The notes under the pieces were generated by a model that saw only the letters and a list, made by a program, of their open reading frames with translations, was not told the DNA's origin and ran no database searches. From the NCBI RefSeq assembly GCF_003790525.1, contig NZ_CP033634.1: a stretch of 64,000 nt of DNA, one strand, 5' to 3'. Each line of letters opens with the position of its first letter. The first letter of the stretch is position 1. Positions 1-62,303 of this stretch are shown in pieces. This stretch comes from Escherichia coli (GTDB taxonomy: Bacteria > Pseudomonadota > Gammaproteobacteria > Enterobacterales > Enterobacteriaceae). Both the position numbers and the translations under genes were made by a program.

Positions 1-1320
1 CCCAACCGCAGCTACAGCAAACTGGTGGACACACTGCTTTCCATCAAAATTGAAAAACTGCGTACCTTCCTGCGTAATTCACCGGCAGCCAACCTGGTGG
101 AAGAGAAAATTGAGAAAACGGCGATTTCCATCCGTGCTGTGCTGACCAACTACGTGAAAGCCATCCGTTACCTGCAGGGGATTGAGCATAACGGTGAGTC
201 TTTTACCATCCGTGACTGGATGCGTGGTGTCCGGGAAGATCAGAAAAACGGCTGGCTGTTTATCTCGTCGAATGCCGACACCCATGCCTCCCTGAAGCCG
301 GTGATCTCCATGTGGCTGTCCATTGCCATTCGTGGTCTGCTGGCAATGGGAGAAAACCGTAACCGTCGTGTGTGGTTTTTCTGTGACGAGTTACCCACGT
401 TACACAAACTGCCGGACCTGGTGGAGATCCTGCCGGAAGCCCGTAAGTTCGGTGGCTGTTATGTGTTTGGTATCCAGTCCTATGCCCAGCTGGAAGATAT
501 CTACGGTGAGAAAGCGGCGGCCACGCTGTTTGACGTCATGAACACCCGTGCTTTTTTCCGTTCCCCGAGCCATAAGATTGCAGAGTTCGCTGCCGGTGAG
601 ATTGGTGAGAAAGAGCACCTGAAAGCCAGCGAGCAGTATTCCTACGGTGCTGACCCGGTACGTGACGGGGTATCGACCGGTAAGGATATGGAGCGTCAGA
701 CACTGGTCAGTTATTCCGACATTCAGTCTCTGCCGGATCTGACCTGCTATGTCACTCTGCCCGGACCGTATCCGGCAGTAAAACTCTCCCTGAAATATCA
801 GGCACGACCGAAGGTCGCTCCGGAGTTTATTCCGCGTGACATCAACCCGGAAATGGAGAACCGTCTGAGTGCCGTACTTGCTGCAAGGGAAGCAGAAGGT
901 CGCCAGATGGCCAGCCTCTTCGAACCGGAGGTTGCCTCCGGAGAAGGCGTGACTCAGGCTGAACAGCCACAACAGCCACAACAGCCACAACAGCCACAAC
1001 AGCCACAACAGCCACAACAGCCACAACAGCCACAACAGCCAGTGTCTTCTGTCATGAATGATAAGAAGTCAGATGCAGGTGTGAGTGTTCCGGCAGGGGG
1101 GATCGAGCAGGAGCTGAAAATGAAACCGGAAGAAGAGATGGAACAGCAACTGCCACCCGGGATCAGTGAATCCGGTGAAGTGGTGGATATGGCCGCTTAT
1201 GAGGCATGGCAACAGGAAAATCATCCGGACATCCAGCAGCAGATGCAGCGTCGTGAAGAGGTGAACATTAATGTGCACCGGGAGCGCGGGGAGGATGTTG
1301 AGCCGGGAGATGATTTCTGA
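1..1320 (+). CDS. traD: Conjugative coupling protein TraD, C-terminal part (gene begins upstream of window)
   Basis: Open frame from nt 1 to TGA at 1318-1320; C-terminus has the QPQ repeat array and ...EDVEPGDDF tail typical of F-like TraD; stop overlaps the traI ATG. Confidence 0.93.
964..1041 (+). repeat. 9-bp tandem repeat (CAGCCACAA x8 plus partial unit) encoding the TraD C-terminal QPQ array
   Basis: Read directly from sequence. Confidence 0.9.
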
Positions 1321-4300
1321 TGTTGAGTTTTAGCGTTGTTAAATCGGCAGGCAGTGCCGGAAACTATTACACCGACAAGGATAATTACTATGTGCTGGGT
1401 AGCATGGGAGAACGCTGGGCCGGTCAGGGGGCTGAACAGCTTGGGCTGCAGGGCAGCGTCGATAAGGATGTTTTTACCCGTCTTCTGGAGGGCAGGCTGC
1501 CGGACGGGGCGGATTTAAGCCGCATGCAGGATGGCAGTAATAAGCATCGTCCCGGCTACGACCTGACCTTCTCCGCCCCCAAAAGTGTCTCCATGATGGC
1601 CATGCTCGGGGGGATAAACGTCTTATTGATGCACATAACCAGGCTGTGGATTTTGCTGTCCGTCAGGTGGAGGCGCTGGCTTCCACACGGGTGATGACGG
1701 ACGGACAGTCAGAAACGGTGCTGACCGGTAATCTGGTGATGGCACTGTTTAACCATGACACCAGTCGCGATCAGGACCCACAGTTACACACGCATGTGGT
1801 GGTGGCTAATGTCACGCAGCATAACGGCGAGTGGAAGACACTGAGCAGTGACAAAGTGGGGAAAACCGGATTTTCCGAGAACGTGCTCGCGAACCGGATT
1901 GCGTTCGGGAAAATATATCAGAGTGAGTTACGTCAGCGCGTTGAGGCGCTGGGTTATGAAACCGAAGTGGTCGGTAAGCACGGTATGTGGGAGATGCCGG
2001 GCGTACCGGTGGAGGCCTTTTCCGGACGCTCACAGGCTATCCGGGAGGCCGTCGGGGAAGATGCCTCGCTGAAATCCCGGGATGTGGCGGCACTGGATAC
2101 GCGAAAATCCAAACAGCACGTCGATCCGGAAATCAGAATGGCTGAATGGATGCAGACGCTGAAGGAAACCGGGTTCGACATCCGGGCATATCGTGACGCG
2201 GCGGATCAGCGTGCGGAGACCCGCACGCAGGCGCCCGGGGCTGTTTCACAGGAGGGGCCGGATGTGCAGCAGGCGGTGACACAGGCCATTGCCGGATTAA
2301 GTGAACGAAAAGTGCAGTTCACGTATACGGACGTGCTGGCCAGGACGGTCGGCATACTGCCGCCGGAAAATGGTGTGATTGAACGGGCACGCGCCGGTAT
2401 CGATGAGGCCATCAGCCGTGAGCAGCTTGTCCCCCTCGATCGTGAGAAGGGGCTGTTCACGTCCGGGATTCATGTGCTCGATGAGCTGTCAGTCCGGGCA
2501 CTCAGTCGTGACATCATGAAACAGAACCGGGTGACCGTACATCCGGAGAAAAGTGTCCCCCGGACGGCCGGTTACAGCGATGCCGTCAGTGTTCTGGCAC
2601 AGGATCGCCCGTCGCTGGCCATTGTGTCCGGGCAGGGCGGTGCAGCCGGGCAGCGTGAGCGGGTGGCTGAACTGGTCATGATGGCCCGGGAGCAGGGGCG
2701 GGAGGTGCAGATTATCGCTGCTGACCGTCGCTCGCAGATGAACCTGAAGCAGGATGAACGGCTGTCCGGTGAGCTGATAACCGGACGTCGTCAGCTGCAG
2801 GAGGGCATGGTCTTCACGCCGGGCAGTACCGTTATCGTTGACCAGGGCGAAAAACTCTCCCTGAAAGAGACGTTAACCCTGCTGGACGGTGCCGCACGTC
2901 ATAACGTACAGGTCCTGATAACCGACAGCGGGCAGCGAACCGGTACAGGCAGTGCGCTGATGGCCATGAAGGATGCCGGGGTGAACACGTATCGCTGGCA
3001 GGGCGGAGAACAGCGACCGGCCACCATCATCAGTGAACCGGACCGGAATGTCCGCTATGACCGGCTGGCCGGAGATTTTGCGGCCAGCGTGAAAGCCGGA
3101 GAAGAGAGCGTGGCACAGGTCAGCGGGGTACGGGAACAGGCCATACTGACACAGGCCATTCGCAGTGAGCTGAAAACACAGGGCGTGCTCGGACACCCGG
3201 AGGTGACCATGACCGCCCTGTCACCGGTCTGGCTGGACAGCCGGAGCCGTTATCTGCGGGATATGTACCGACCGGGGATGGTGATGGAGCAGTGGAACCC
3301 GGAGACACGCAGTCATGACCGCTATGTTATCGACCGGGTGACGGCGCAGAGTCACAGCCTGACCCTGCGGGATGCGCAGGGCGAAACGCAGGTGGTGCGT
3401 ATTTCCTCCCTGGACAGCAGCTGGTCGCTGTTCCGGCCGGAAAAAATGCCGGTGGCAGACGGCGAGCGACTGAGGGTGACAGGGAAAATTCCCGGACTCC
3501 GCGTCTCCGGCGGTGACCGCCTGCAGGTGGCATCCGTCAGTGAAGATGCGATGACGGTTGTTGTGCCGGGGCGGGCTGAACCGGCCACCCTGCCTGTGGC
3601 TGATTCACCGTTCACGGCACTGAAGCTGGAGAACGGCTGGGTGGAAACGCCCGGGCATTCCGTCAGCGACAGTGCGAAGGTTTTTGCCTCCGTCACACAG
3701 ATGGCAATGGACAACGCCACCCTGAACGGTCTGGCCCGCAGTGGTCGTGATGTCCGGCTGTATTCTTCACTGGATGAAACCCGTACTGCGGAAAAACTTG
3801 CCCGCCATCCCTCCTTTACGGTGGTTTCTGAGCAGATAAAGGCGCGTGCCGGTGAGACATTGCTGGAAACCGCTATCAGTCTGCAGAAAGCCGGGCTTCA
3901 CACGCCGGCACAGCAGGCTATTCATCTGGCCCTTCCTGTGCTGGAAAGTAAAAACCTGGCCTTCAGCATGGTGGACCTGCTGACAGAGGCGAAGTCGTTT
4001 GCTGCAGAAGGAACCAGTTTTACTGAACTGGGAGGGGAAATCAATGCGCAGATAAAACGCGGTGATTTACTGTATGTGGATGTGGCAAAAGGCTATGGCA
4101 CAGGCCTGCTGGTTTCCCGTGCGTCGTATGAGGCAGAAAAGAGCATTCTTCGCCATATTCTCGAAGGTAAGGAGGCGGTCACGCCGCTGATGGAGAGAGT
4201 ACCTGGCGAACTCATGGAGAAACTGACATCAGGACAGCGTGCCGCCACCCGCATGATACTGGAAACGTCCGACCGTTTCACGGTGGTGCAGGGCTATGCC

Positions 4301-6589
4301 GGTGTGGGTAAGACCACACAGTTCCGGGCGGTGATGTCAGCCGTGAACATGCTGCCGGAGAGTGAGCGTCCCCGTGTCGTTGGGCTGGGTCCCACGCACC
4401 GCGCGGTCGGGGAGATGCGCAGCGCCGGCGTGGATGCACAGACACTGGCGTCCTTTCTGCATGACACGCAGCTGCAGCAGCGCAGCGGAGAAACGCCGGA
4501 TTTCAGCAACACGCTGTTCCTGCTCGATGAGAGCTCAATGGTGGGCAATACCGACATGGCACGGGCATACGCCCTGATTGCGGCCGGTGGCGGTCGTGCT
4601 GTGGCCAGCGGTGACACGGACCAGCTGCAGGCCATCGCGCCCGGTCAGCCTTTCCGTCTCCAGCAGACGCGCAGTGCTGCCGATGTGGTCATCATGAAGG
4701 AGATTGTGCGTCAGACGCCGGAACTGCGGGAGGCGGTATACAGCCTGATTAACCGGGATGTGGAAAGGGCACTGTCCGGGCTTGAGAGTGTGAAACCGTC
4801 TCAGGTTCCCCGTCAGGAGGGCGCATGGGCACCGGAGCACTCCGTGACGGAGTTCAGTCACAGCCAGGAAGCGAAACTGGCAGAAGCGCAGCAGAAGGCG
4901 ATGCTGAAAGGCGAGGCTTTCCCGGATATCCCCATGACACTGTATGAAGCCATTGTCCGCGACTATACCGGCAGGACACCGGAAGCACGGGAGCAGACGC
5001 TGATTGTCACACACCTGAATGAGGACCGGCGCGTACTGAACAGCATGATTCATGATGCACGGGAAAAGGCCGGTGAGCTGGGCAAAGAGCAGGTCATGGT
5101 GCCTGTCCTGAACACAGCGAATATACGTGACGGAGAACTGCGTCGTCTCTCCACCTGGGAGAATAACCCGGATGCCCTTGCCCTGGTGGATAGTGTGTAT
5201 CACCGGATTGCCGGTATCAGCAAGGATGACGGGCTGATAACCCTGCAGGATGCGGAAGGTAACACGCGGCTGATTTCGCCCCGGGAGGCGGTGGCTGAAG
5301 GCGTCACACTGTACACCCCGGACACCATCCGGGTGGGAACCGGTGACCGGATGCGCTTCACGAAGAGTGACCGGGAGCGCGGTTATGTGGCCAACAGCGT
5401 CTGGACGGTGACAGCGGTTTCAGGTGACAGTGTCACGTTGTCGGACGGACAGCAGACCCGGGTGATTCGCCCCGGTCAGGAGCGGGCAGAGCAACATATT
5501 GACCTGGCTTATGCCATCACCGCCCACGGTGCGCAGGGGGCAAGTGAAACCTTTGCCATCGCGCTTGAAGGCACGGAAGGTAACCGGAAACTGATGGCAG
5601 GCTTTGAGTCAGCTTATGTAGCCCTGTCGCGTATGAAGCAGCATGTGCAGGTGTACACCGATAACCGTCAGGGCTGGACGGATGCCATCAACAATGCCGT
5701 ACAGAAAGGAACTGCCCACGATGTGTTTGAACCGAAACCGGACCGGGAGGTCATGAATGCAGAGCGGCTGTTCAGTACGGCGCGGGAGCTGCGGGACGTG
5801 GCGGCAGGCCGTGCCGTTCTTCGTCAGGCGGGACTTGCCGGGGGAGACAGTCCTGCACGGTTTATTGCTCCGGGACGTAAATATCCGCAACCGTATGTGG
5901 CACTGCCGGCTTTTGACCGTAACGGCAGGTCCGCCGGTATCTGGCTGAACCCGCTGACCACGGATGACGGAAACGGGCTGCGGGGATTCAGCGGTGAAGG
6001 CCGGGTGAAAGGCAGCGGGGATGCACAGTTTGTGGCCCTGCAGGGCAGCCGTAACGGAGAGAGCCTGCTGGCTGATAATATGCAGGATGGTGTCCGGATT
6101 GCCCGTGATAATCCTGACAGCGGTGTGGTGGTGAGAATCGCCGGTGAAGGCCGTCCGTGGAATCCCGGTGCCATCACCGGTGGTCGCGTGTGGGGGGATA
6201 TCCCGGACAACAGCGTCCAGCCGGGGGCCGGAAATGGTGAACCGGTTACAGCTGAAGTGCTGGCACAGCGGCAGGCTGAAGAGGCCATCCGCCGTGAAAC
6301 GGAACGTCGCGCAGATGAAATTGTCCGTAAAATGGCAGAGAACAAACCTGACCTGCCGGATGGCAGAACAGAGCAGGCTGTCAGGGAGATTGCCGGGCAG
6401 GAGCGTGACCGGGCTGCCATAACTGAACGGGAAGCCGCGCTGCCGGAGAGTGTGCTGCGTGAATCACAACGGGAGCGGGAAGCGGTCCGGGAGGTTGCCC
6501 GGGAAAATCTGCTGCAGGAGCGTCTGCAGCAGATGGAGCGGGATATGGTCCGTGACCTGCAGAAAGAGAAAACCCTGGGCGGAGACTGA
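1320..6589 (+). CDS. traI: TraI relaxase/helicase; frame interrupted by an apparent 1-nt loss in a G6 run near 1608-1613 (ORFs 1320-1694 and 1646-6589)
   Basis: N-terminus [35 protein letters not shown] and the 1647-aa downstream ORF both match recalled F TraI; the two ORFs are in different frames and together give full length. Confidence 0.85.
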
Positions 6590-6608
6590 TACAGGAAGAC
6601 AAACACTG

Positions 6609-7355
6609 ATGACAACGGATAACACGAATACGACACGTAACGATTCACTGGCTGCACGGACCGATACCTGGTTGCAGTCGTTTCTGGTCTGGTCACCCGG
6701 ACAGCGGGATATCATCAAAACGGTGGCACTGGTGCTGATGGTACTGGACCACATCAATCTGATATTCCAGCTGAAGCAGGAATGGATGTTTCTGGCCGGG
6801 CGAGGAGCCTTTCCGCTGTTTGCCCTGGTGTGGGGGCTGAATCTGTCCCGTCATGCGCATATCCGGCAACCGGCCATTAACCGGCTGTGGGGATGGGGAA
6901 TTATTGCCCAGTTCGCATATTATCTGGCCGGCTTTCCCTGGTATGAGGGGAATATCCTGTTTGCCTTTGCAGTGGCGGCACAGGTGCTGACGTGGTGTGA
7001 AACGCGCAGTGGGTGGCGTACAGCAGCGGCCATTCTTCTGATGGCCCTGTGGGGGCCCTTGTCCGGCACCAGTTACGGCATTGCCGGGCTGCTGATGCTG
7101 GCAGTCAGCCACCGGCTGTACCGGGCGGAAGACAGAGCGGAACGTCTGGCGCTGGTCGCCTGCCTGCTGGCTGTTATTCCGGCGCTTAACCTTGCCACCA
7201 GTGATGCAGCGGCGGTGGCCGGTCTTGTGATGACGGTGCTGACCGTTGGTCTGGTGTCGTGTGCAGGAAAATCATTACCCCGTTTCTGGCCCGGGGATTT
7301 TTTCCCGGTATTCTACGCCTGTCATCTGGCTGTGCTGGGCGTTCTGGCGCCGTGA
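6609..7355 (+). CDS. traX: TraX F-pilin acetylase
   Basis: MTTDNTNTTRNDSLAARTDTWLQS... near-identical to recalled F TraX; ATG at 6609 inside the longer listed ORF. Confidence 0.9.
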   Translation: MTTDNTNTTRNDSLAARTDTWLQSFLVWSPGQRDIIKTVALVLMVLDHINLIFQLKQEWMFLAGRGAFPLFALVWGLNLSRHAHIRQPAINRLWGWGIIAQFAYYLAGFPWYEGNILFAFAVAAQVLTWCETRSGWRTAAAILLMALWGPLSGTSYGIAGLLMLAVSHRLYRAEDRAERLALVACLLAVIPALNLATSDAAAVAGLVMTVLTVGLVSCAGKSLPRFWPGDFFPVFYACHLAVLGVLAP

Positions 7356-7409
7356 CGGGTGTGGTATCTTTGACCGTAACAGGATGATTCGTCAGAGGCA
7401 GAACACAGC

Positions 7410-7970
7410 ATGACAGAGCAGAAGCGACCGGTACTGACACTGAAGCGGAAAACGGAAGGGGAGACGCCTGTCCGCAGCCGGAAAACCATCATCAATGTCA
7501 CCACGCCACCAAAGTGGAAGGTGAAAAAGCAGAAGCTGGCCGAGAAAGCAGCCCGGGAAGCAGAGCTGGCGGCAAAAAAAGCGCAGGCCAGACAGGCACT
7601 GTCCATTTATCTGAACCTGCCCACGCTGGATGAGGCCGTGAATACCCTGAAACCCTGGTGGCCGGGATTGTTTGACGGTGACACGCCCCGGCTTCTGGCC
7701 TGCGGTATCCGGGACGTGTTACTGGAAGACGTGGCGCAGCGGAATATCCCGCTCTCGCATAAAAAACTGCGCAGGGCGCTGAAGGCCATCACCCGTTCAG
7801 AAAGCTATCTGTGTGCCATGAAAGCCGGTGCCTGCCGGTATGACACGGAAGGGTATGTGACGGAGCATATTTCTCAGGAGGAGGAAGCGTATGCGGCAGC
7901 GCGTCTGGATAAAATCCGCCGCCAGAACCGGATAAAGGCAGAACTTCAGGCCGTGCTTGATGAGAAATAA
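7410..7970 (+). CDS. finO: FinO fertility-inhibition RNA chaperone
   Basis: 186-aa product [14 protein letters not shown]... matches recalled F/R100 FinO; position after traX is canonical. Confidence 0.92.
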
Positions 7971-8557
7971 AAAAGCCTCCGTCAGAGAGAGGAGGCAGGG
8001 AAATAAGGCTTAAAGGAAATAACTTCCGTACCCAAAAGGAAATCGGTCCACTGAATTATTTAACACCATAATGTTGACGGGTTAAAGAGGAGTGATAAAG
8101 ATGAATGGATTCAGAAACAGTTCACGGAACGGTCAGGTCTGGCGCTGGCAGCGTGCCGGAAGCCGGGCCGTTATTCTGGAGGTCAGTGGACGCTGGATGG
8201 AAGCGGCAGAAGCATGGCGACGGGCTGCCGGTGTTGCACCCCGGACAGACTGGCAGCAGTTTGCCCGAAAAAGGGCTGAACAATGCCACCGACGCTGCCG
8301 GGGAAGGGTGTAACGAAAAAGCAGCCTTCATTACTCCAGGGATTCAGAAGGCTGAATAATGCATGAGATTTGCTTTTTTTAATATCCGGTCGGGCAGTAT
8401 GACCGGACAGTTCTGAGTAGCACAGAGTTTTTTCCGTATTAAGTCGTGATTTTATATTTTGTGATTAATTTCGCAAAATAAGGTGTTATTCAGTGTGTGC
8501 TGCGATATTCAGGATTACCTGAAATACAGGTGCCATTTATCTGATATGGAGAATAAT

Positions 8558-9019
8558 ATGAGGAAATATATTCCACTGGTATTATTTATCTTTTCATGGC
8601 CGGTATTGTGTGCAGATATTCATGGACGGGTTGTTCGTGTACTGGACGGTGATACCATCGAGGTCATGGACTCACGGAAGGCAGTGCGGATCAGGCTGGT
8701 AAATATTGATGCACCGGAAAGGAAACAGGATTATGGCCGGTGGTCAACGGACATGATGAAATCACTGGTTGCAGGAAAAACGGTTACCGTCACATATTTT
8801 CAGCGAGATCGTTATGGTCGTATTCTCGGGCAGGTTTATGCACCAGACGGAATGAATGTTAATCAGTTTATGGTCCGGGCCGGGGCTGCCTGGGTATATG
8901 AGCAGTACAACACAGATCCCGTGCTGCCTGTCCTTCAGAACGAAGCCAGACAACAAAAACGTGGGCTCTGGTCAGATGCTGATCCGGTTCCCCCCTGGAT
9001 ATGGAGACACCGTAAATAA
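8558..9019 (+). CDS. Secreted thermonuclease-family (staphylococcal-nuclease-like) endonuclease
   Basis: Signal-peptide-like N-terminus MRKYIPLVLFIFSWPVLCA then SNase-like motifs (LDGDTIEV, RLVNIDAPE, DRYGRILGQVY); GGAG 6 nt before the ATG at 8558. Confidence 0.75.
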   Translation: MRKYIPLVLFIFSWPVLCADIHGRVVRVLDGDTIEVMDSRKAVRIRLVNIDAPERKQDYGRWSTDMMKSLVAGKTVTVTYFQRDRYGRILGQVYAPDGMNVNQFMVRAGAAWVYEQYNTDPVLPVLQNEARQQKRGLWSDADPVPPWIWRHRK

Positions 9020-9064
9020 AGCGATGGCAATCTTATCATTCATCTGTTCTCAGCGGGAATAAAA

Positions 9065-9274
9065 ATGGCGAAAACAAAACAGGAATGGCTGTATCAGTTA
9101 CGGCGATGTTCATCAGTCAATACGCTGGAAAAAATTATTCATAAAAACAGAGACAGTTTATTAAACAGTGAACGTGAATCATTTAATTCAGCAGCAGACC
9201 ACCGGTTAGCGGAATTAATCACCGGAAAGTTATATGACAGGATACCAAAAGAGATATGGAAATATGTAAGGTAA
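9065..9274 (+). CDS. Hypothetical small protein
   Basis: 69-aa ORF between nuclease and DUF2726 genes in the same orientation; no recognisable domain. Confidence 0.4.
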   Translation: MAKTKQEWLYQLRRCSSVNTLEKIIHKNRDSLLNSERESFNSAADHRLAELITGKLYDRIPKEIWKYVR

Positions 9275-9311
9275 TAATTCAACATAATTAATTTCCAGGA
9301 ACAGATAAATA

Positions 9312-9902
9312 ATGAAGTTGATTATTTTTATTCTCATTGTTCTGATTATTGCAGCGTTACTTATCCGGATTATCCTCAGAAGTGTAAATCAGCATTCTCC
9401 TTTGCTGATGCAGTTACATGCGGCAGGTATACGGACCGGTGATGCAGAGCGAATACTGTCCGGCGGTGAATACTGGCAACGTCAGAAGACGCTGCTGACA
9501 GAAAGGGAAGTCAGTTTTATGAAAGGACTGTTCAGAATTGTGGATATGAAGCGGTGGTATCTGTGTCCGCAGGTACGGGTCGCGGATATCGTCCAGCTGA
9601 ACGGGAATATCCGGCCACGATCACGCCAGTGGTGGCAGTTATTCAGGATGGTGTCTCAGTGGCATGTTGATGTGGTTATCGTTGAGCAGCGTTCGTTCAG
9701 TATTGTTGCAGCAGTAGAGCTGGATGATGCCAGCCATTTACGACCGGAACGCAGACGCCGGGATATTCTTCTGGAAGAGGTTCTGAGGCAGGCTGGTATT
9801 CCGTTGCTCAGAAGCCACGATGCCAGAAAACTGCTGCAGATGACCGGAGAATGGCTGAATACAACAGGGGCTGATCAGCAGTCCCCGGAACATCGTAGCT
9901 GA
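9312..9902 (+). CDS. DUF2726-like (nuclease-related fold) protein with N-terminal transmembrane helix
   Basis: Hydrophobic N-terminus; central WHVDVVIVE and ELDDASH segments recalled as typical of DUF2726 proteins common downstream of finO in IncF plasmids. Confidence 0.65.
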   Translation: MKLIIFILIVLIIAALLIRIILRSVNQHSPLLMQLHAAGIRTGDAERILSGGEYWQRQKTLLTEREVSFMKGLFRIVDMKRWYLCPQVRVADIVQLNGNIRPRSRQWWQLFRMVSQWHVDVVIVEQRSFSIVAAVELDDASHLRPERRRRDILLEEVLRQAGIPLLRSHDARKLLQMTGEWLNTTGADQQSPEHRS

Positions 9903-34986: not shown

Positions 34987-35849
34987 GCTTAGTCAGCCGT
35001 TGTCTCCGGGTGTCGCGTGCGCAGTTGCACGTCATTCTCAGACGAACCGATGACTGGATGGATGGCCGCCGCAGTCGTCACACTGATGATACGGATGTGC
35101 TTCTCCGTATACACCATGTTATCGGAGAGCTGCCCACGTATGGTTATCGTCGGGTATGGGCGCTGCTTCGCAGACAGGCAGAACTTGATGGTATGCCTGC
35201 GATCAATGCCAAACGTGTTTACCGGATCATGCGCCAGAATGCGCTGTTGCTTGAGCGAAAACCTGCTGTACCGCCATCGAAACGGGCACATACAGGCAGA
35301 GTGGCCGTGAAAGAAAGCAATCAGCGATGGTGCTCTGACGGGTTCGAGTTCTGCTGTGATAACGGAGAGAGACTGCGTGTCACGTTCGCGCTGGACTGCT
35401 GTGATCGTGAGGCACTGCACTGGGCGGTCACTACCGGCGGCTTCAACAGTGAAACAGTACAGGACGTCATGCCAGGAGCGGTGGAACGCCGCTTCGGCAA
35501 CGATCTTCCGTCGTCTCCAGTGGAGTGGCTGACGGATAATGGTTCATGCTACCGGGCTAATGAAACACGCCAGTTCGCCCGGATGTTGGGACTTGAACCG
35601 AAGAACACGGCGGTGCGGAGTCCGGAGAGTAACGGAATAGCAGAGAGCTTCGTGAAAACGATAAAGCGTGACTACATCAGTATCATGCCCAAACCAGACG
35701 GGTTAACGGCAGCAAAGAACCTTGCAGAGGCGTTCGAGCATTATAACGAATGGCATCCGCATAGTGCGCTGGGTTATCGCTCGCCACGGGAATATCTGCG
35801 GCAGCGGGCTTGTAATGGGTTAAGTGATAACAGATGTCTGGAAATATAG
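34944..35849 (+). CDS. insD: IS2 OrfB (InsD) transposase catalytic part (expressed as OrfAB frameshift fusion)
   Basis: DDE integrase-like ORF overlapping orfA in the -1 frame. Confidence 0.92.
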
Positions 35850-47580: not shown

Positions 47581-49539
47581 ATGTCAGTTACAGAGTCTAA
47601 GACAAAAACGGAGCGTAAATCCAGCCGTAAACCTGCAAAAACGCAGGAAACTGTCCTGTCTGCCCTGCTGGCGCAGACGGAGGAAGTGAGCGTGCCGCTG
47701 GCCTCGCTGATTAAATCACCGCTGAATGTGCGCACGGTGCCGTATTCTGCGGAGTCCGTCAGCGAACTGGCGGAGTCCATTAAGGGCGTCGGACTGCTGC
47801 AGAATCTGGTCGTGCATACCCTGCCAGGTGACCGTTACGGTGTCGCCGCAGGTGGTCGCCGACTGGCAGCACTCAACATGCTGGCAGAGCGTGGAATCAT
47901 TCCGGCTGACTGGCCTGTCCGCGTGAAAATTATTCCGCAGGAACTGGCGACGGCTGCATCGATGACCGAGAACGGTCATCGTCGGGATATGCACCCTGCC
48001 GAACAGATTGCCGGATTCCGCGCAATGGCGCAGGAAGGCAAAACACCTGCACAAATCGGTGATTTGCTGGGCTATTCACCCCGCCACGTTCAGCGAATGC
48101 TGAAACTGGCAGACCTTGCGCCTGTCATTCTCGATGCGCTGGCAGAGGACCGCATCACCACAGAGCACTGTCAGGCGCTGGCGCTGGAGAACGACACCGC
48201 GCGTCAGGTGCAGGTGTTTGAAGCCGCCTGTCAGTCAGGATGGGGCGGTAAACCGGAAGTGCAGACCATTCGTCGTCTGGTGACCGAAAGTGAAGTGGCG
48301 GTGGCGGGGAACAGTAAATTCCGCTTCGTGGGGGCTGATGCCTTCTCGCCAGATGAACTGCGCACCGATTTGTTCAGCGACGACGAGGGTGGCTATGTGG
48401 ACTGCGTGGCGCTCGATGCCGCCCTGCTGGAAAAACTCCAGGCTGTTGCTGAACACCTTCGGGAAGCCGAAGGCTGGGAATGGTGCGCCGGACGTATGGA
48501 GCCTGTCGGTTTCTGCCGTGAGGATGCCGGAACATACCGCAGTCTGCCGGAGCCGGAAGCGGTGCTGACGGAGGCGGAAGAAGAACGCCTGAACGAACTG
48601 ATGGCACGTTACGACGCGCTGGAAAATCAGTGTGAGGAATCCGACCTGCTGGAAGCAGAAATGAAGCTGATTGACTGCATGGCGAAGGTCAGGGCGTGGA
48701 CGCCGGAGATGCGTGCCGGAAGTGGCTTGGTGGTATCCTGGCGTTATGGAAACGTATGTGTCCAGCGTGGTGTGCAGTTGCGCAGTGAGGATGACGTGGC
48801 TGACGACGCTGGCCGCACGGAACAGGTGCAGGAGAAAGCCTCCGTGGAGGGAATCAGTCTGCCGCTGCTGACGAAAATGTCTTCCGAACGCACGCTGGCA
48901 GTCCAGGCGGCACTCATGCAGCAACCGGACAAATCCCTGGCACTGCTGGCATGGACGCTCTGCCTGAATGTGTTTGGCAGCGGAGCGTACAGTAAACCAG
49001 CACAAATCAGCCTGGAATGTGAACATTATTCGCTGACCAGCGATGCGCCATCGGGGAAGGAAGGTGCCGCATTCATGGCGCTGATGGCAGAAAAAGCCCG
49101 TCTTGCTGCCCTGTTGCCGGAGGGATGGGCACGGGACATGACGACGTTCCTGTCACTCAGTCAGGAGGTGCTGTTATCCCTGCTCAGTTTCTGCACCGCA
49201 TGCAGCCTTAACGGTGTCCAGACCCGTGAGTGTGGTCACACGTCACGCAGTCCGCTTGACTCGCTGGAAACCGCTATCGGATTCCACATGCGCGACTGGT
49301 GGCAGCCGACAAAAGCAAACTTCTTCGGACACCTGAAAAAGCCGCAGATTATCGCAGCCCTGAATGATGCCGGACTGTCCGGTGCCGCACGGGACGCGGA
49401 GAAGATGAAGAAAGGCGATGCGGCTGAACATGCAGAGTTCCACATGAAAGACAACCGCTGGGTGCCTGGCTGGATGTGTGCACCACGTCCACAGACGGAT
49501 GCCACTGAACGCACCGCTAACCTGGCTGATGCCGCCTGA
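47581..49539 (+). CDS. ParB-like nuclease-domain protein of the leading region
   Basis: 652 aa; N-terminal ParB/Srx-like motif (GLLQNLVVHTLPGDRYGVAAGGRRLAA). Confidence 0.8.
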   Translation: MSVTESKTKTERKSSRKPAKTQETVLSALLAQTEEVSVPLASLIKSPLNVRTVPYSAESVSELAESIKGVGLLQNLVVHTLPGDRYGVAAGGRRLAALNMLAERGIIPADWPVRVKIIPQELATAASMTENGHRRDMHPAEQIAGFRAMAQEGKTPAQIGDLLGYSPRHVQRMLKLADLAPVILDALAEDRITTEHCQALALENDTARQVQVFEAACQSGWGGKPEVQTIRRLVTESEVAVAGNSKFRFVGADAFSPDELRTDLFSDDEGGYVDCVALDAALLEKLQAVAEHLREAEGWEWCAGRMEPVGFCREDAGTYRSLPEPEAVLTEAEEERLNELMARYDALENQCEESDLLEAEMKLIDCMAKVRAWTPEMRAGSGLVVSWRYGNVCVQRGVQLRSEDDVADDAGRTEQVQEKASVEGISLPLLTKMSSERTLAVQAALMQQPDKSLALLAWTLCLNVFGSGAYSKPAQISLECEHYSLTSDAPSGKEGAAFMALMAEKARLAALLPEGWARDMTTFLSLSQEVLLSLLSFCTACSLNGVQTRECGHTSRSPLDSLETAIGFHMRDWWQPTKANFFGHLKKPQIIAALNDAGLSGAARDAEKMKKGDAAEHAEFHMKDNRWVPGWMCAPRPQTDATERTANLADAA

Positions 49540-49590
49540 TGAACAACCACACCGCCCCGCCGGAGACGGGGCGGCAGAGGGAGAAATACG

Positions 49591-50028
49591 ATGATGAATA
49601 CCGAACTGACACTGAATGCCCTGCAGTCCATGAATGCCCAGGAATATGAAGAAATCCGTGCTGCGGGAAGCGATATGCGCCGTAATCTCACTCACGAGGT
49701 GATGCGTGAAGTGGACGCACCGGCTAACTGGATGATGAATGGCGAGTATGGCAGCGAGTTCGGGGGCTTTTTCCCCGTCCAGGTTCGTTTCACGCCAGCC
49801 CACGAACGTTTCCACCTGGCATTATGTTCGCCGGGAGACGTCTCTCAGCTCTGGGTGCTGGTTCTGGTGAATGCCGGTGGTGAGCCGTTTGCGGTGGTTC
49901 AGGTGCAGCGGCGGTTTGCACCGGAAGCTGTCAGCCATTCACTGGCACTGGCGGCGTCACTGGATGCGCAGGGGTACAGCGTTAACGACATCATTCATAT
50001 CCTGATGGCGGAAGGAGGTCAGGCATGA
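49591..50028 (+). CDS. psiB: PsiB plasmid SOS-inhibition protein (alternative start 49594)
   Basis: ...[26 protein letters not shown]...[33 protein letters not shown]... near-identical to recalled F PsiB. Confidence 0.92.
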
Positions 50029-50744
50029 GCGCACGTTCACAGGCACTGGTTCCTCTCAGCACAGAGCAACAGGCCGCATGGCGGGCGGTGGCGGAGACCG
50101 AAAAACGCCGCCATCAGGGTAACACGCTGGCTGAATATCCGTATGCGGGGGCGTTTTTCCGCTGTCTGAACGGAAGCCGCAGGATTTCGCTGTCTGACCT
50201 GCGATTTTTCATGCCATCCCTGACCGCAGAAGAACTGCACGGCAGCCGTCTTCAGTGGCTGTATGCCATCGATGTGCTGATTGAAACACAGGGCGAGGTC
50301 TGCCTCCTTCCCCTTCCCGGTGATGCAGCAGAGCGCTTGTTCCCGTCGGTGCGGTTTCGTGTCAGGGAACGCAGTCGCCATAAATCCGCGCTGGTCATGC
50401 AGAAGTACAGCCGCCAGCAGGCGAGGGAGGCAGAGCAGAAAGCCCGTGCGTACCAGGCGCTGGTCGCTCAGGCTGAAATCGAACTGGCATTCCATTCGCC
50501 GGAAACAGTCGGAAGCTGGCATGCACGCTGGAGTGACCGGGTGGCAGAGCATGACCTGGAAACCCTGTTCTGGCAGTGGGGCGAGCGTTTTCCGTCACTG
50601 GCCGGAATGGAACGCTGGCAGTGGCAGGATATGCCGTTCTGGCAGGTTATTGCGGAAGCCAGTCTTGCAGCAAGAGAGGCCGGTCACGCTGTCCGTGAGA
50701 TGGAGCGGTGGATGGTGCCGAACAAACTCCGGGAGGCAGCGTGA
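50025..50744 (+). CDS. psiA: PsiA
   Basis: 239-aa product downstream of and overlapping psiB, as in F. Confidence 0.9.
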
Positions 50745-50924
50745 TGCGGCAACAATCACACGGATTTCCCGTGAACGGTCTGAATGAGCGGATTATTTTC
50801 AGGGAAAGTGAGTGTGGTCAGCGTGCAGGTATATGGGCTATGATGTGCCCGGCGCTTGAGGCTTTCTGCCTCATGACGTGAAGGTGGTTTGTTGCCGTGT
50901 TGTGTGGCAGAAAGAAGATAGCCC

Positions 50925-51000
50925 CGTAGTAAGTTAATTTTCATTAACCACCACGAGGCATCCCTATGTCTAGTCCACATCAGGATAGCCTCTTACCGCG
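50925..51000 (-). ncRNA. sok: Putative Sok antisense RNA (approximate)
   Basis: Position inferred from the hok/sok paradigm (antisense across the mok start region). Confidence 0.35.
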
Positions 51001-51178
51001 CTTTGCGCAAGGAGAAGAAGGCCATGAAACTACCACGAAGTTCCCTTGTCTGGTGTGTGTTGATCGTGTGTCTCACACTGTTGATATTCACTTATCTGAC
51101 ACGAAAATCGCTGTGCGAGATTCGTTACAGAGACGGACACAGGGAGGTGGCGGCTTTCATGGCTTACGAATCCGGTAA
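50966..51178 (+). CDS. mok: Mok-like overlapping reading frame of the hok/sok locus
   Basis: 70-codon frame overlapping hok in the +2 register, as described for R1 hok/sok. Confidence 0.55.
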
Positions 51179-51182
51179 GTAG
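51024..51182 (+). CDS. hok: Hok host-killing toxin (type I toxin-antitoxin; flmA-like)
   Basis: [52 protein letters not shown], 52 aa, matching recalled Hok. Confidence 0.9.
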
Positions 51183-51453
51183 CAACCTGGAGGCGGGCGC
51201 AGGCCCGCCTTTTCAGGACTGATGCTGGTCTGACTACTGAAGCGCCTTTATAAAGGGGCTGCTGGTTCGCCGGTAGCCCCTTTCTCCTTGCTGATGTTGT
51301 ACGGGCATGAACAACCTGACTTCAGGAAGGTCGTTTCCCTTCAGGAACGGGGATGAACGCGCGCCTGCGGCGCCCGTTCTTTTCCCCCGCCTTCTCTGGT
51401 TACGGCCTGTCAGAAATCACATCACCTTCCCTGTGATTATTCTCTTTTTCTTC

Positions 51454-52010
51454 CTGCTCTGATTCTGACTACTGCAGTGTTGTCCTGTCTGCTGGCGCAC
51501 CTGCCAGTCTCCGCCGAACCCGCTGGCGCGGTTTCGGGCTGTCGCTACGGTCCGATGCGTGAAAACCCCGGGCTTGCAGCGACCGTTCCGGTCGCGCCGC
51601 CTCTGTCGCGCCGTGGCCTGCGCTCCTGGCATCCCGGCAAAAAGACGCCGGGATGTAAGGCGCAACGCCGTTTCGCAAACCGCGCTTCACGTCGTTGCTG
51701 CGGGTCCCTGCCCGTTGTTGTGTCCGGTGCCATTCACCTGTTTAAGCCCCTGTCGCCGGGGGCTGATACAGCCACAACCTGCCGCACTGACTGTCCAGGG
51801 TAAATGAACAGCCCACAAAATTTTTTACCCAAAACCCGGTAAAAAATTTTGCGTTCTGCCCAGGACAGGTGCGTCAGGCCGTGGCAGTGATGCCCCTTGC
51901 GGCGAAGGTTCTCAAACAGGTGATGGTGAATACCGGAGGGAACAAAGAGCAGGTCCCCGCAAAACGTCAAAACCGCGGCTCCCGAAACTCAACAGATGAT
52001 GGGGGCTGAA
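51454..52010 (+). repeat. Frpo/ssi-like leading-region repeat, copy 3 (about 70-bp internal deletion relative to copies 1 and 2)
   Basis: Same start (ctgctctgattctgactactgcagtgttg) and end (cgtcaaaaccgcggctcccgaaactcaac) as the other copies. Confidence 0.6.
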
Positions 52011-52438
52011 AACCAGAGAGAGGAGAAAGCTGGATGAGTACCCGAAATATCCACGTTAACACCGCGTCGTACACGATTCTTGTTGCCGGGAGGGAAAAAA
52101 CACCGGGGAAGAGTGGGACGTCCTGGAATTCAGCAGCCTGACTGAGCTGAAAAAATATCGCAAAAGCCACCCGGAAAAGATGGCCTTCAGCTATAGCTAC
52201 GCGCTCAGCCGGGGTGTGGATACGCAGTTCCGCCATATCAACATTGCGGAAGCCGATCACTTCAAACAGTTCCTGCGTCAGATTAAGCGTGCCGGCCTCG
52301 ATATCCGGGCGATCTGCTGACCGGATGTGATGAATATCCCTCCTGATTGTTGCAATCTTGTTAATGGAGATCGGGAGAGATGATATTAAGCGGAAAAATT
52401 TTTTATTAAATTTATTCTTTCATAAAGGAGTAGCTGTT

Positions 52439-53260
52439 ATGCGATTAGCTTCCCGTTTTGGTCGGTATAATTCCATCCGTCGTGAACGTCCTTTAACGGA
52501 TGATGAATTAATGCAGTTCGTGCCTTCGGTATTTTCCGGTGATAAACATGAGTCCCGGAGTGAACGTTATACGTATATTCCAACAATCAATATCATCAAT
52601 AAGTTACGTGATGAAGGTTTCCAGCCATTCTTTGCCTGTCAGAGTCGGGTTCGTGATTTGGGACGCCGCGAATACAGTAAACATATGTTACGTCTTCGCA
52701 GGGAAGGGCATATTAACGGGCAGGAAGTTCCTGAAATTATCCTGCTTAATTCACATGATGGTTCATCCAGTTATCAGATGATCCCCGGAATTTTTCGTTT
52801 TGTCTGCACAAATGGCCTGGTGTGCGGAAATAATTTTGGCGAAATCCGTGTTCCACATAAAGGTGATATTGTCGGGCAGGTTATCGAGGGAGCGTATGAA
52901 GTGCTCGGTGTCTTTGATAAGGTCACTGATAATATGGAGGCGATGAAAGAAATTCATCTTAACAGTGACGAGCAACATTTATTTGGCAGAGCTGCACTGA
53001 TGGTCAGGTATGAAGATGAAAATAAAACGCCAGTGACACCTGAACAGATAATTACTCCCCGTCGTCGGGAAGATAAACAGAACGATCTCTGGACAACCTG
53101 GCAGCGGGTTCAGGAGAATATGATAAAAGGTGGATTATCGGGGCGAAGTGCCTCCGGGAAAAATACCAGGACAAGAGCCATTACAGGTATTGATGGTGAT
53201 ATAAGAATCAACAAGGCGTTATGGGTGATTGCCGAACAGTTCAGAAAGTGGAAGTCATGA
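52439..53260 (+). CDS. DUF932-like leading-region protein
   Basis: 273 aa from the ATG at 52439 (AAGGAG upstream), MRLASRFGRYNSIRRERPLTDDELMQF...; the gene nearest oriT on the leading side. Confidence 0.7.
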   Translation: MRLASRFGRYNSIRRERPLTDDELMQFVPSVFSGDKHESRSERYTYIPTINIINKLRDEGFQPFFACQSRVRDLGRREYSKHMLRLRREGHINGQEVPEIILLNSHDGSSSYQMIPGIFRFVCTNGLVCGNNFGEIRVPHKGDIVGQVIEGAYEVLGVFDKVTDNMEAMKEIHLNSDEQHLFGRAALMVRYEDENKTPVTPEQIITPRRREDKQNDLWTTWQRVQENMIKGGLSGRSASGKNTRTRAITGIDGDIRINKALWVIAEQFRKWKS

Positions 53261-53556
53261 TAATATAAGTAAAGCCCCGAAAAAATTTTCGGGGCTTTAC
53301 TTATATTATCATTTTTCGGCATTGCTGTGTCGTCTGATATACCTCAATTTCATCGACCGGCTTTCCGGTTGTCTGTAAATATTGTGCCCGCGAAAAATGG
53401 TCTGGCAGGAGGCTGCGCAGTTACCGGGTATATATAAGATGGGTTCCCGCTTCGCGGGGCTTCGGCCAGTCAGTATTGTCACTCATATGATATTTTTGTG
53501 TGTGGCCTTCCATGCCGCTTTTGCGGCATAACCGGTATCTGACAATGTCTGTAAGA

Positions 53557-54066
53557 TTAATTGTTCTGCACGCTGTTAATTTCCGGAAGTGATTTCTTCG
53601 TGGCCGGAAGCCGGATACCTTTACTGCTTTTTATCCCGGTATAAATCCGGTAAACCTCTGATGCGTAGGCAAGACGTCTCTGGTTCTGGCGTTCGGATTT
53701 CCTGAATCCTGCATTGTATGCACCAACGGCCTCCCAGGTGACGCCCCATTTTTTAAATGCTATTGCCAGATAATAAGCACCGGTATAAATGTTCATGCAG
53801 GGATCTGTTGTCAGATGTTCTGGCTTAATTCCGTAGCGGGCCAGTTCGTTAAAATGCTGGGAATCTACCTGCATCAGTCCGCTGCCATATCCCGTTACCG
53901 GATTAATACCGATGGCATTAACCCGGTAACGGGATTCTTTCCATGATATTGCTCTCAGTAAATCAGGATCTATTTTGTAATCCCGGCCTGCAAGATCAAA
54001 GCAATCAGTGGCATGGCAGATCTCATTTATAAACATCAGGCAGATGGCTAACATCCATTTTTTCAT
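53557..54066 (-). CDS. Lytic transglycosylase (gene X / orf169-like)
   Basis: 169 aa from [10 protein letters not shown]...; signal peptide then lysozyme-like transglycosylase motifs ([24 protein letters not shown]). Confidence 0.85.
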
Positions 54067-54099
54067 TTTTCCACCTCTGGTGACTTTATCCGTAAATAA

Positions 54100-54470
54100 T
54101 TTAACCCACTCCACAAAAAGGCTCAACAGGTTGGTGGTTCTCACCACCAAAAGCACCACACACTACGCAAAAACAAGTTTTTGCTGATTTGCCACTTGAA
54201 TCATTAACTTATGTTTTAAATAATGTATTTTAATTTATTTTACATTATAAAAAGGATTCATTGGTGAATCGCATATGATTCACCAATGAATTTAACACAA
54301 CTCATAGATGAATCAGTAATAATAAAACAACGAGTTAAAGCGAATTGACTCTAGATTCAATTCGTGATGTGATTTGCTGCATGAATCGTAATTTTCGTAA
54401 CTTGCGTCACGATTCGATTCATCGATGAATTGTCATTTTTTTATATGTGAAATAAATTTGATGCGATAAG
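54100..54470. other. oriT region; nic predicted on the minus strand near 54157/54158
   Basis: Inverted repeat TTGGTGGTTCTCACCACCAA (54131-54150) followed by AAGCACCACACACTACGCAAAAAC, resembling the recalled F/R100 nic region; AT-rich tract with repeated motifs before traM. Confidence 0.7.
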
Positions 54471-54489
54471 AAAATAAAGAGGTATACAT

Positions 54490-54873
54490 ATGGCGAAAGT
54501 GCAGGCTTATGTCAGTGACGAAATTGTCTATAAAATAAATAAAATTGTGGAAAGAAGACGTGCAGAAGGAGCTAAAAGTACAGATGTAAGTTTCTCAAGC
54601 ATATCCACTATGCTTCTCGAATTAGGGCTTCGTGTATATGAGGCTCAGATGGAGCGTAAAGAGTCAGCGTTCAATCAGGCTGAGTTTAATAAGGTGCTTC
54701 TTGAATGTGCGGTAAAAACACAGTCAACAGTTGCTAAGATTTTAGGTATTGAGTCACTAAGCCCTCATGTTTCCGGGAATCCAAAGTTTGAATATGCGAA
54801 TATGGTCGAAGATATCAGGGAGAAGGTGTCATCTGAGATGGAGAGGTTCTTTCCAGAAAATGATGAGGATTAA
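54490..54873 (+). CDS. traM: TraM
   Basis: MAKVQAYVSDEIVYKINKIVERRRAEGAKSTDVSFSSISTMLLELGLRVYEAQ..., 127 aa. Confidence 0.9.
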   Translation: MAKVQAYVSDEIVYKINKIVERRRAEGAKSTDVSFSSISTMLLELGLRVYEAQMERKESAFNQAEFNKVLLECAVKTQSTVAKILGIESLSPHVSGNPKFEYANMVEDIREKVSSEMERFFPENDED

Positions 54874-54961
54874 AAAAGAATTAAAAGTTGATTTGCTTCA
54901 AATAACAGGATTTTGATCTGGTTCAATTTGATGACAATTAACCGCATAAAGGTTATATTAA

Positions 54962-55040
54962 TTACGTGGTTAATGCCACGTTAAAAATTGAAACTGAAAA
55001 TCGCCGATGCAGGGAGTTCAGACCTCCCTGCATCGACTGT
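54962..55040 (-). ncRNA. finP: Putative FinP antisense RNA against the traJ leader (approximate)
   Basis: Two hairpins in the traJ 5' UTR (CGTGG-TTAATG-CCACG at about 54965-54980; GATGCAGGGAG-TTCAGAC-CTCCCTGCATC at about 55005-55035); finO is present in the window. Confidence 0.45.
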
Positions 55041-55066
55041 CCATAGAATCCTTAACGGAGGTTCCT

Positions 55067-55753
55067 ATGTGTGCGCTGGATCGTAGAGAAAGGCCACTTA
55101 ACAGTCAATCTGTAAATAAATACATCCTTAACGTTCAGAATATCTACAGAAATTCTCCCGTTCCGGTTTGTGTCCGTAACAAAAACCGGAAAATCCTTTA
55201 TGCCAATGGGGCTTTTATTGAACTCTTTTCCAGAGAAGATAAACCCTTATCCGGAGAGAGTTATATACGTCTGCAGGTTGAAATTTTTCTTTCATCACTT
55301 GAACTGGAATGCCAGGCTCTTGGACATGGCTCTGCATTTTGTCGTCGTTTTAATTTTCATGGCGAAATCTATCAGATAAGGATGGAGAATGTTTCTTTTT
55401 ATAATGACGAATCTGTTGTTTTATGGCAAATTAATCCGTTTCCTGATTATCCATTTTTTGCGTTAAATCAGAGTGGAAGTAATACAAATACTTCTGATAA
55501 ATTAACGATATGGAATGATCTTTCTCCAGGGACATTGGTTGTTTTCTCTTTTTATATGCTGGGTGTTGGTCACGCAACAATTGCCAGAGAGTTGGGTATT
55601 ACAGACAGAGCATCTGAGGATCGAATTAAACCAGTTAAACGGAAAATAAAAGAATTTTTTGAACACTTTGATTTATTCAGAGTGTCATGTATCTATAAAG
55701 GAGAAATAGATTCGCTATTAAGTATAATTCGTGAATTTTATAGTATTAAGTAA
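55067..55753 (+). CDS. traJ: TraJ transfer activator
   Basis: 228 aa from the ATG at 55067 (GGAGG 6 nt upstream); position between traM and traY; TraJ is poorly conserved among F-like plasmids. Confidence 0.7.
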
Positions 55754-55846
55754 ATGTTAAATAAGGCACGCCAATTTTGGCGTGTTTTTTTTCGTCGGTT
55801 TCTGTGCAATCATGATTTTATTAGTCAGGAAACAGAGGTGAATTGA

Positions 55847-56074
55847 GTGAGGAGGCGTAACGCGAGAGGCGGGATAAGCAGAACAGTCTCAGTGTATCTC
55901 GATGAAGATACAAATAACCGACTTATTCGGGCCAAAGATCGTAGCGGTAGAAGTAAAACTATAGAGGTTCAGATCCGTCTCAGAGATCATCTGAAACGGT
56001 TTCCTGATTTCTATAATGAAGAAATATTCAGGGAGGTGATCGAAGAGAACGAGTCAACATTTAAAGAACTTTAG
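55847..56074 (+). CDS. traY: TraY (R100-type short form, GTG start)
   Basis: MRRRNARGGISRTVSVYLDEDTNNRLIRAKDRSGRSKTIEVQIRLRDHLKRFPDFYNEEIFREVIEENESTFKEL; ribbon-helix-helix motifs. Confidence 0.8.
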   Translation: MRRRNARGGISRTVSVYLDEDTNNRLIRAKDRSGRSKTIEVQIRLRDHLKRFPDFYNEEIFREVIEENESTFKEL

Positions 56075-56107
56075 TTTTTATCTATCAATATTAAACAGAG
56101 GAATCAT

Positions 56108-56467
56108 ATGAATACTGTTTTAAGTGTTCAGGGTGCTTCTGCGCCTGTTGAAAAGAAATCGTTTTTTTCTAAATTCACTCGTCTGAATATGCTTCGCCTG
56201 GTTCGCGCAGTGATCCCGGTTGCTGTTCTGATGATGTTCTTCCCGCAACTGGCAATGGCAGCACAGGGCCAGGACCTGATGCAGAGTGGTAACTCCACGG
56301 TTAAGGCGACCTTCGGTAAGGACTCCAGTGTTGTTAAATGGGTTGTTCTGGCTGAAGTTCTGGTCGGTGCTGTCATGTACATGATGACCAAAAACGTCAA
56401 GTTCCTGGCCGGTTTTGCCATCATCTCTGTATTTATTGCTGTGGGTATGGCCGTCGTTGGCCTCTGA
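56108..56467 (+). CDS. traA: TraA propilin
   Basis: [31 protein letters not shown]...[10 protein letters not shown]...[25 protein letters not shown]. Confidence 0.93.
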
Positions 56468-56481
56468 CAGGAAATAAAACG

Positions 56482-56793
56482 ATGTCGGGAGACGAGAATA
56501 AACTTAAGAAATATCGTTTCCCGGAAACACTGACCAACCAGAGCCGCTGGTTTGGCCTGCCACTGGATGAACTGATCCCCGCAGCAATCTGTGTTGGCTG
56601 GGGTATCACAACATCGAAATATCTGTTCGGTATTGGTGCAGCTGTTCTGGTTTATTTCGGGATTAAAAAACTGAAAAAAGGGCGGGGCAGTTCCTGGTTA
56701 CGTGACCTGATTTACTGGTATATGCCAACAGCCCTGCTGCGCGGTATTTTTCATAATGTTCCCGATTCGTGTTTCCGGCAGTGGATTAAATAG
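56482..56793 (+). CDS. traL: TraL
   Basis: 103-aa product in conserved gene order. Confidence 0.9.
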
Positions 56794-56814
56794 AACTGAT
56801 ATCAGGATTGTTAT

Positions 56815-57381
56815 ATGGAACACGGTGCCCGTTTAAGTACCAGTCGTGTAATGGCCATCGCCTTTATATTTATGTCAGTGCTTATTGTTCTCAGCCTCTC
56901 TGTTAACGTCATTCAGGGGGTGAATAACTACCGCCTTCAGAATGAGCAACGCACTGCCGTGACGCCAATGGCATTTAATGCCCCCTTTGCCGTGTCACAG
57001 AACAGTGCCGACGCCTCTTATTTACAGCAGATGGCGCTGTCATTTATTGCCCTCCGTCTGAATGTTTCATCAGAAACCGTCGATGCCTCACATCAGGCGC
57101 TTCTGCAATATATCCGCCCGGGCGCACAGAACCAGATGAAAGTTATTCTGGCTGAAGAAGCGAAGCGTATTAAAAACGATAACGTGAACTCAGCCTTTTT
57201 CCAGACCAGTGTTCGTGTCTGGCCTCAGTATGGCCGTGTGGAAATTCGTGGTGTGCTTAAAACCTGGATTGGTGATTCAAAACCTTTCACTGATATCAAA
57301 CATTACATCCTTATTCTGAAGCGGGAAAACGGGGTGACCTGGCTGGATAATTTCGGGGAAACAGACGATGAGAAAAAATAA
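56815..57381 (+). CDS. traE: TraE
   Basis: 188-aa product with N-terminal transmembrane helix; conserved order. Confidence 0.9.
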
Positions 57382-61160: not shown

Positions 61161-61294
61161 CTGGCCCTGAAGTTGTATATCAGCCGGCAATGTCGGCGGG
61201 CTTTCTGTATTCAAAATCTGCCTGTAAAACGAGTGCCCTGTGCGTGAAAAGGGATGGGCGGTAGCGTGTCAGAACATGTCGGGAGGAATATTCC

Positions 61295-61982: not shown

Positions 61983-62030
61983 GAATCTGCAGTGTTTTAT
62001 GACCTCATAAGTTAACTGAAGGGATATTCA

Positions 62031-62276: not shown

Positions 62277-62303
62277 GTGCTTACTGCTTCAAAGGAAAAT
62301 GAA

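Follow-up and report, generated by a model that had tools for sequence, protein, structure and literature searches.

The traI gene in the analysed window, a stretch of 64,000 nucleotides from Escherichia coli that is an IncFII R100-like plasmid, is written in two reading frames that meet in a run of six G. The missing seventh G is probably a long-read consensus undercall of a G/C homopolymer, with the plasmid DNA itself unchanged. A G7 run at codons 97-99 would then have been written one base short, and the plasmid would encode a normal TraI of 1756 amino acids and be self-transmissible. As written, traI is a pseudogene or an error. The first-pass annotation had offered these two alternatives, a homopolymer sequencing error and a real pseudogene, and they proved to be the right ones. 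It gave no weights to them; the comparison of related sequences favours a sequencing or assembly error over a real pseudogene.

That annotation had described a traI relaxase gene split by a frameshift in a G6 run, and in this it was accurate to the base, as ORFs, translations, NCBIfam matches and the repair by one G all agree. The frame switch that it had placed at ctcggggggat (1605-1615) was found there, and the sequence reads exactly six G at 1608-1613. According to the ORF list, the gene consists of an ORF of 124 amino acids with an ATG start and an ORF of 1647 amino acids with a GTG start, offset by -1 (Table 1). The translation of the former comprises native TraI residues 1-98, ending in ...MMAMLGG, followed by 26 out-of-frame residues and a TGA. 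The other frame reads GDKRLIDAHNQ... (GDKRLIDAHNQAVDF...) through to the TraI C-terminus. NCBIfam TraI models matched ORF1 at positions 1-102 and ORF2 at positions 126-1752 (PRK13709, E = 0), which rules out a chance juxtaposition. Adding one G resulted in a single ORF of 1756 amino acids that is identical to the TraI of plasmid pGZM7d (WP_121832034.1, zero amino acid differences). Hence, the gene name assigned at first pass is supported by the model matches on both ORFs as well as by the restored protein. The predicted repair to seven G was borne out by every close relative, in which the run reads GGG GGG GAT (Gly97-Gly98-Asp99).

Upstream, the traD stop codon TGA (1318-1320) overlaps the traI ATG. 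Downstream, traX differs from its pGZM7d counterpart by one synonymous C/T exchange at 7092 (CTG vs TTG, both Leu) and is otherwise identical. The TGATG inside traI is a possible candidate for a termination-reinitiation point, judged from the overlap of stop and start codon. Gene callers placed the start of the second product at the ATG of this motif in two other G6 contigs (at 6375 there), and a helicase-bearing fragment might be translated from it despite the break.

Table 1. Coordinates of traI and neighboring features in the window.
Feature	Position	Strand	Evidence
traD 3' part (coupling protein)	25..1320	+	ORF list; traD annotation in pGZM7d and other relatives
traI 5' fragment, 98 native and 26 out-of-frame codons, TGA 1692-1694	1320..1694	+	translation, NCBIfam
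catalytic tyrosine codons Y16, Y17, Y23, Y24	1365..1391	+	restored-protein numbering, F TraI alignment
G6 homopolymer, codons 97-98	1608..1613	+	G7 in every close relative
traI downstream ORF, -1 frame: remaining relaxase domain, ssDNA-binding domains, helicase, C-terminal domain	1646..6589	+	
TGATG, fragment-1 stop overlapping in-frame ATG (Met126) of the downstream frame (candidate reinitiation point)	1692..1696	+	sequence
HUH metal-binding histidine codons H146 (1754-1756), H157 (1787-1789), H159 (1793-1795)	1754..1795	+	restored-protein numbering, F TraI alignment
traX, intact, directly downstream of traI	6609..7355	+	collinear with pGZM7d traX
finO, intact, 186 aa	7410..7970	+	ORF list; pGZM7d annotation

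Residues 1-340 of the restored TraI aligned without gaps to F TraI (PDB 5N8O, 1P4D; E = 3e-211), and the HUH/TrwC relaxase domain was recognized at residues 10-283 (Pfam PF08751 TrwC, E = 1.7e-80). As written, this domain is divided over two frames. The SF1B helicase and TraI_C regions are represented on ORF2 by matches above curated cut-offs to NCBIfam PRK13709, PRK14712, and TIGR02760, and on the identical product in relatives by the Pfam matches AAA_30 and TraI_C. The traD-traX context of the gene is present, and in place of a single ORF of about 1756 codons there is one broken at 1608-1613. By these sequence matches, traI is here an ordinary gene of the R100 type (MOBF12 relaxase-helicase), and the IncFII plasmid that carries it belongs to the pGZM7d / RDDW01000035 lineage. 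A side observation concerns one of the family models. Residues 9-1631 of the downstream TraI fragment (window 1694-6586) span positions 1-1623 of NF011300 (PRK14712, 'TraI'), which is the whole model. NF011300 (1623 positions) begins at about TraI residue 134, and this extent suggests that traI ORFs lacking their 5' part were used to build it.

In the restored protein Y16, Y17, Y23, and Y24 as well as H146, H157, and H159 are all at the positions known from F TraI; ORF1 contains the tyrosines, and ORF2 contains the histidines. The first-pass annotation had deduced a loss of self-transfer from relaxase tyrosines lying on both sides of the break. This reason has to be withdrawn, as all four tyrosine codons are located upstream; it is the three histidines that are separated from them. 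The deduction as such stands for the case that the break is real. Relaxase activity would then be lost because the nucleophile is parted from the metal site and residues 99-125 are removed, as we infer from the established HUH mechanism.

A real and very recent 1-bp deletion is the main alternative to the preferred undercall, and we regard it as unlikely, though it has to be weighed seriously. It would have arisen by slipped-strand mispairing in G7 and truncated TraI after residue 98. With Y16 parted from H146, H157, and H159 there would be no functional relaxase, oriT would stay un-nicked, and self-transfer would be lost. Since oriT is intact and the tra operon is otherwise intact in its visible portion, a co-resident R100-type plasmid could mobilise the plasmid in trans. 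A +1 slip could revert the lesion, and a helicase fragment TraI(126-1756) might be produced by reinitiation at the TGATG. This explanation takes the sequence at face value, in which the lesion is present. It counts against this explanation that the visible tra genes of the window show no second lesion.

Over about 60 kb the window runs collinear with pGZM7d (NZ_CP129283.1), a plasmid of E. coli from chicken liver in Henan. The comparison showed 14 base substitutions, distributed over 12 sites, along with two homopolymers that are unequal by a single base and three tandem repeats of unequal copy number, and the resistance region is rearranged between the two plasmids. The traI genes of pGZM7d, pMTY1886_IncFII, and the FDAARGOS_1287 plasmid carry G7. 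The traP dinucleotide at 59934-59935 occurs in three states: the window shares TG with four other public contigs, pGZM7d and pMTY1886 have GA, and the FDAARGOS_1287 plasmid has GC. The TG allele served as the marker that picked out the sub-lineage of the window.

A look-up of the TraP allele of the window led to the closest sequence found, the draft contig RDDW01000035.1 (GCA_003686615.1, 50,256 bp). It is 100% identical to window positions 49513-64000 over 14,488 bp and in this stretch shares with it the TraP allele (59934) as well as a run of six A at 52095. Compared to window positions 1-9589, its sole difference is one extra G in the traI run. In total, 9,589 + 14,488 = 24,077 bp could be compared, in which only G7 versus G6 differs, and the contig encodes an intact TraI of 1756 amino acids. 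A Logan contig from SRR18428940 also has G7 and is otherwise the same as the window over 8,579 bp. Relative to its close relatives the G6 break is private to the window, as far as their sequences tell. A sister with G7 and zero substitutions over 24 kb leaves hardly any time in which a real mutation could have occurred, which favours the undercall and speaks against a deletion.

The same comparison also provided points against an undercall. All 43 other homopolymers of at least 6 bases agree between the window and RDDW01000035.1 over these 24 kb, including G7 at 60507 and T8 at 55785. Thus, the assembly is not generally error-prone, and its apparent accuracy supports a real deletion. A run of six A at 52095-52100, where pGZM7d has A7, splits a conserved hypothetical ORF of 95 amino acids (window 52034-52320; WP_000107526.1 in relatives). 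At first this A6 was suspected to reveal an assembly prone to errors; the suspicion was dropped, since RDDW01000035.1 and DASMRJ010000046.1, two independent contigs, share it at 100% identity. By this agreement, A6 at 52095 is a real inherited variant of the lineage and not an assembly error, which again lends weight to a deletion in traI. In RefSeq, 15 records have A6, and about 427 fall into the 95-99% identity band that holds A7. Moreover, G7 runs are true hotspots of slipped-strand mutation, and loss of transfer functions is frequent in F-like plasmids. A real and very recent mutation would give the same picture in every comparison made here.

The sequencing history of the window bears on the undercall as well. 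The window spans repeats, among them two copies of IS26, and must therefore have been assembled from long reads, alone or in a hybrid approach, which is a further reason to favour the undercall. Both this long-read origin and the error at the missing G are conclusions that we infer from the sequence. Errors in long-read consensus sequences are mainly homopolymer deletions that break up genes (PMC12007338).

Our survey of public records revealed that G6 at this site is rare and unevenly distributed. Exactly 10 RefSeq records of complete E. coli sequences contain G6 in the identical 66-bp context, all of them with accessions in the range CP014-CP034, which we take to be deposits of 2016-2018. 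In those inspected, traI was flagged as 'frameshifted' by PGAP. From an even-step sample of G7 records with the same flanks, 3 out of 34 were in this accession range. With counts extrapolated from this sample, and thus approximate, G6 is present in about 10 of 95 low-numbered records and in none of the later ones, which number about 877 (Fisher p = 5e-11). For the later records (about 877, estimated) the upper 95% bound on G6 is about 0.34%, a figure that speaks against a real deletion. The link from accession range through deposit date to sequencing platform is our assumption, except for pYHCC. This G6 plasmid (KR078259) was sequenced by PacBio alone (PMC4622254).

PLSDB contained 26 G6 records; the G7 records lie in the 95-99% identity band of that search, which comprised about 1,578. 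Besides E. coli, Shigella and Klebsiella were represented among the 26 G6 records, 7 of which have GenBank-only accessions. Later G6 records do exist among them (CP054243/47/50, CP088688, and CP148534/38/49), which counts against the undercall. Overall, the in-frame G7 accounted for more than 98% of records. In short-read metagenomes, 90 contigs with this context had G7 and a single one, 1.4 kb long and of 1x coverage, had G6.

The exact truncated product of 124 amino acids was present on 55 contigs in public collections. For 36 of the 68 index blocks listing it, no carrying contig reached 2 kb. Among the matches listed, 5 of the 10 longest carrying contigs had traI or traD broken up many times over, as is characteristic of noisy long-read assemblies. 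These shredded G6 contigs showed 1-8 gap columns in pairwise traI alignments with the window or a cleaner contig of the same allele. The window's 1631-aa downstream product, the mark of a carrier of the same allele with G6, had no record in the public collections. G6 was found on at least 4 traI alleles, that of the window and at least 3 others, which are 118-131 substitutions apart. It is therefore a recurrent site-specific event that has arisen at least 4 times rather than the property of one lineage.

Several of these records fit a real deletion. There is the one short-read metagenome contig with G6, and there are the 55 contigs with the 124-aa product, together with the 36 of 68 index blocks without a carrier reaching 2 kb. 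In addition, two contigs whose traI is otherwise clean share G6 and are identical to each other over 5,270 bp; one is an E. coli plasmid, and the other belongs to an assembly with a protein named Klebsiella pneumoniae MGH 59. Against a deletion, G6 is clustered in assemblies that have low accession numbers or are visibly noisy long-read products. We favour the undercall because G6 is confined in RefSeq to low-numbered accessions and occurs in the PacBio-only pYHCC and in noisy assemblies, and because about 877 later records (estimated) lack G6 and the short-read contigs stand at 90 G7 to 1 G6. TraI is a textbook protein, and dozens of public records already contain this lesion at this position and flag it. 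A literature search yielded no relevant report of a frameshift in traI at this position.

The recurrence of G6 on several traI alleles could also be expected if the G run were functional. It might then act as a reversible G7/G6 switch of self-transfer, or G6 might be decoded to full-length TraI by -1 or transcriptional slippage. In the leaky version, a P-site tRNA-Gly would slip by -1 on GGG GGG before the AUA codon and give rise to a low level of wild-type TraI. Re-pairing from GGG (1611-1613) to GGG (1610-1612) would be perfect and would bring GAT (Asp99) into the A site, resulting in the wild-type protein, and AUA, the codon in the A site of the 0 frame, is one of the rare codons of E. coli. 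That indels can be corrected during translation is recognised (PMC5009743). We nevertheless consider a functional run highly improbable, and the comparison of sequences lends it no support. The gene is in a single frame with G7 in more than 98% of the records, and the two-frame arrangement is not conserved in relatives. Nor is the run itself conserved. F and F-like alleles read GGT GGC GAT and pSLT-like alleles GCC GGT GAT, and GGG GGG GAT or GAC was found in the R100-like group only. The restriction of G6 to low-numbered RefSeq accessions is likewise unlike what a biological switch predicts.

No slippery heptamer of the type X XXY YYZ occurs in the 0 frame, in which the codons are CTC GGG GGG ATA and a would-be C GGG GGG does not fit. 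Thus, slippage of a single tRNA in the P site would be the only possible mechanism. The 87 nt downstream (1614-1700) had a predicted folding energy of -28 kcal/mol, which did not differ significantly from shuffled sequences (z = -1.23), and no Shine-Dalgarno-like stimulator was evident in the sequence upstream of the G run. A programmed -1 frameshift was rejected on the grounds of the lacking in-frame heptamer and of the downstream structure being not significant. A tract of 6-7 bases is shorter than typical phase-variable tracts and is unconserved here, and coexistence of ON and OFF states independent of the sequencing method found no support. A family-wide contingency tract was rejected because the F and pSLT alleles are devoid of the G run. 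If the run were functional after all, plasmids annotated with a traI pseudogene would still conjugate at a reduced rate.

Several further differences were noted in the window. An insertion of 1,315 bp (22185-23499) that is not present in pGZM7d is flanked by an 8-bp target duplication. On its minus strand (22219-23427) it encodes a 402-aa transposase of the IS256 family (NCBIfam NF033543), and it is located near the 3'-end of a methyl-accepting chemotaxis-like gene beside IS26. In the 3' region of traD, a 9-bp unit AACAGCCAC at 962-970 lies in the Gln/Pro-rich tail of TraD. Its copy number varies in near-identical sister contigs, two of which have one copy fewer and one of which has two more. 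Compared to pGZM7d, an 8-bp unit (AAGATAAC / ATAACAAG) was lost at one and gained at the other of the positions 28660 and 29772, and 24 bp of CTGCTA repeats are absent at 46004. At 35473-35474 in an IS2-like region, the window has CA (CCAGG, a Dcm site) where pGZM7d has TG (CTGGG); as a speculation, one of the two records may contain a methylation miscall from nanopore sequencing at this motif.

The PGAP flags 'frameshifted' on psiA, trbE, and short ssb fragments were found alike in pGZM7d, pMTY1886_IncFII, and the FDAARGOS_1287 plasmid. The flagged psiA corresponds to about 50024-50786 and the ssb fragment to about 51803-52008 in the window (2445-3207 and 4224-4429 in the pGZM7d segment). The flags on psiA, trbE, and the upstream ssb fragment were considered as assembly errors and rejected, being common to three independently sequenced relatives. 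They are thus features of the lineage or of the annotation model and uninformative on the window.

If the missing G is an error, as we prefer to assume, its consequence is only practical: traI is called a pseudogene by annotation pipelines, and a conjugative resistance plasmid can be mis-scored as non-transmissible. A useful by-product is that the G7 run of R100-type traI would have to be regarded as a recurrent miscalling site in long-read assemblies. If the deletion is real, the window would represent a resistance plasmid that has freshly lost self-transfer and is still mobilisable, which bears on the risk assessment of the isolate and adds no new biology.

Among known systems, the closest parallels to the lesion are other G6 plasmids. 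pEcIMT16316 (CP023816), pZH193 (CP014498), the AR_0058 plasmid (CP021690), pCRE10.1 (CP034401), and pYHCC, among others, have the same 66-bp context and 124-aa product as the window. They differ from it in their traI alleles, with about 98.8% identity over 1.2 kb and 129-131 substitutions over the full length, so that the event in the window is an independent one. Long-read homopolymer deletion errors resemble the window in that one base is lost from a 7-run and a conserved gene is fragmented, whereas no other such error occurs in 24 kb of the window. Contingency loci and programmed -1 sites such as those of dnaX and the IS3 family also have a mononucleotide run in the 5' coding region, the length of which sets the frame. 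In contrast, the run in the window is short, unconserved, and without a 0-frame heptamer or downstream structure. The TraI proteins of F and R100 (MOBF12 HUH relaxase / SF1B helicase; PDB 5N8O, 1P4D, 2A0I) are like the restored TraI of the window, which has the same 1756 amino acids in length; the window ORF is interrupted at codons 97-99, whereas F, reading GGT GGC GAT, has no homopolymer there.
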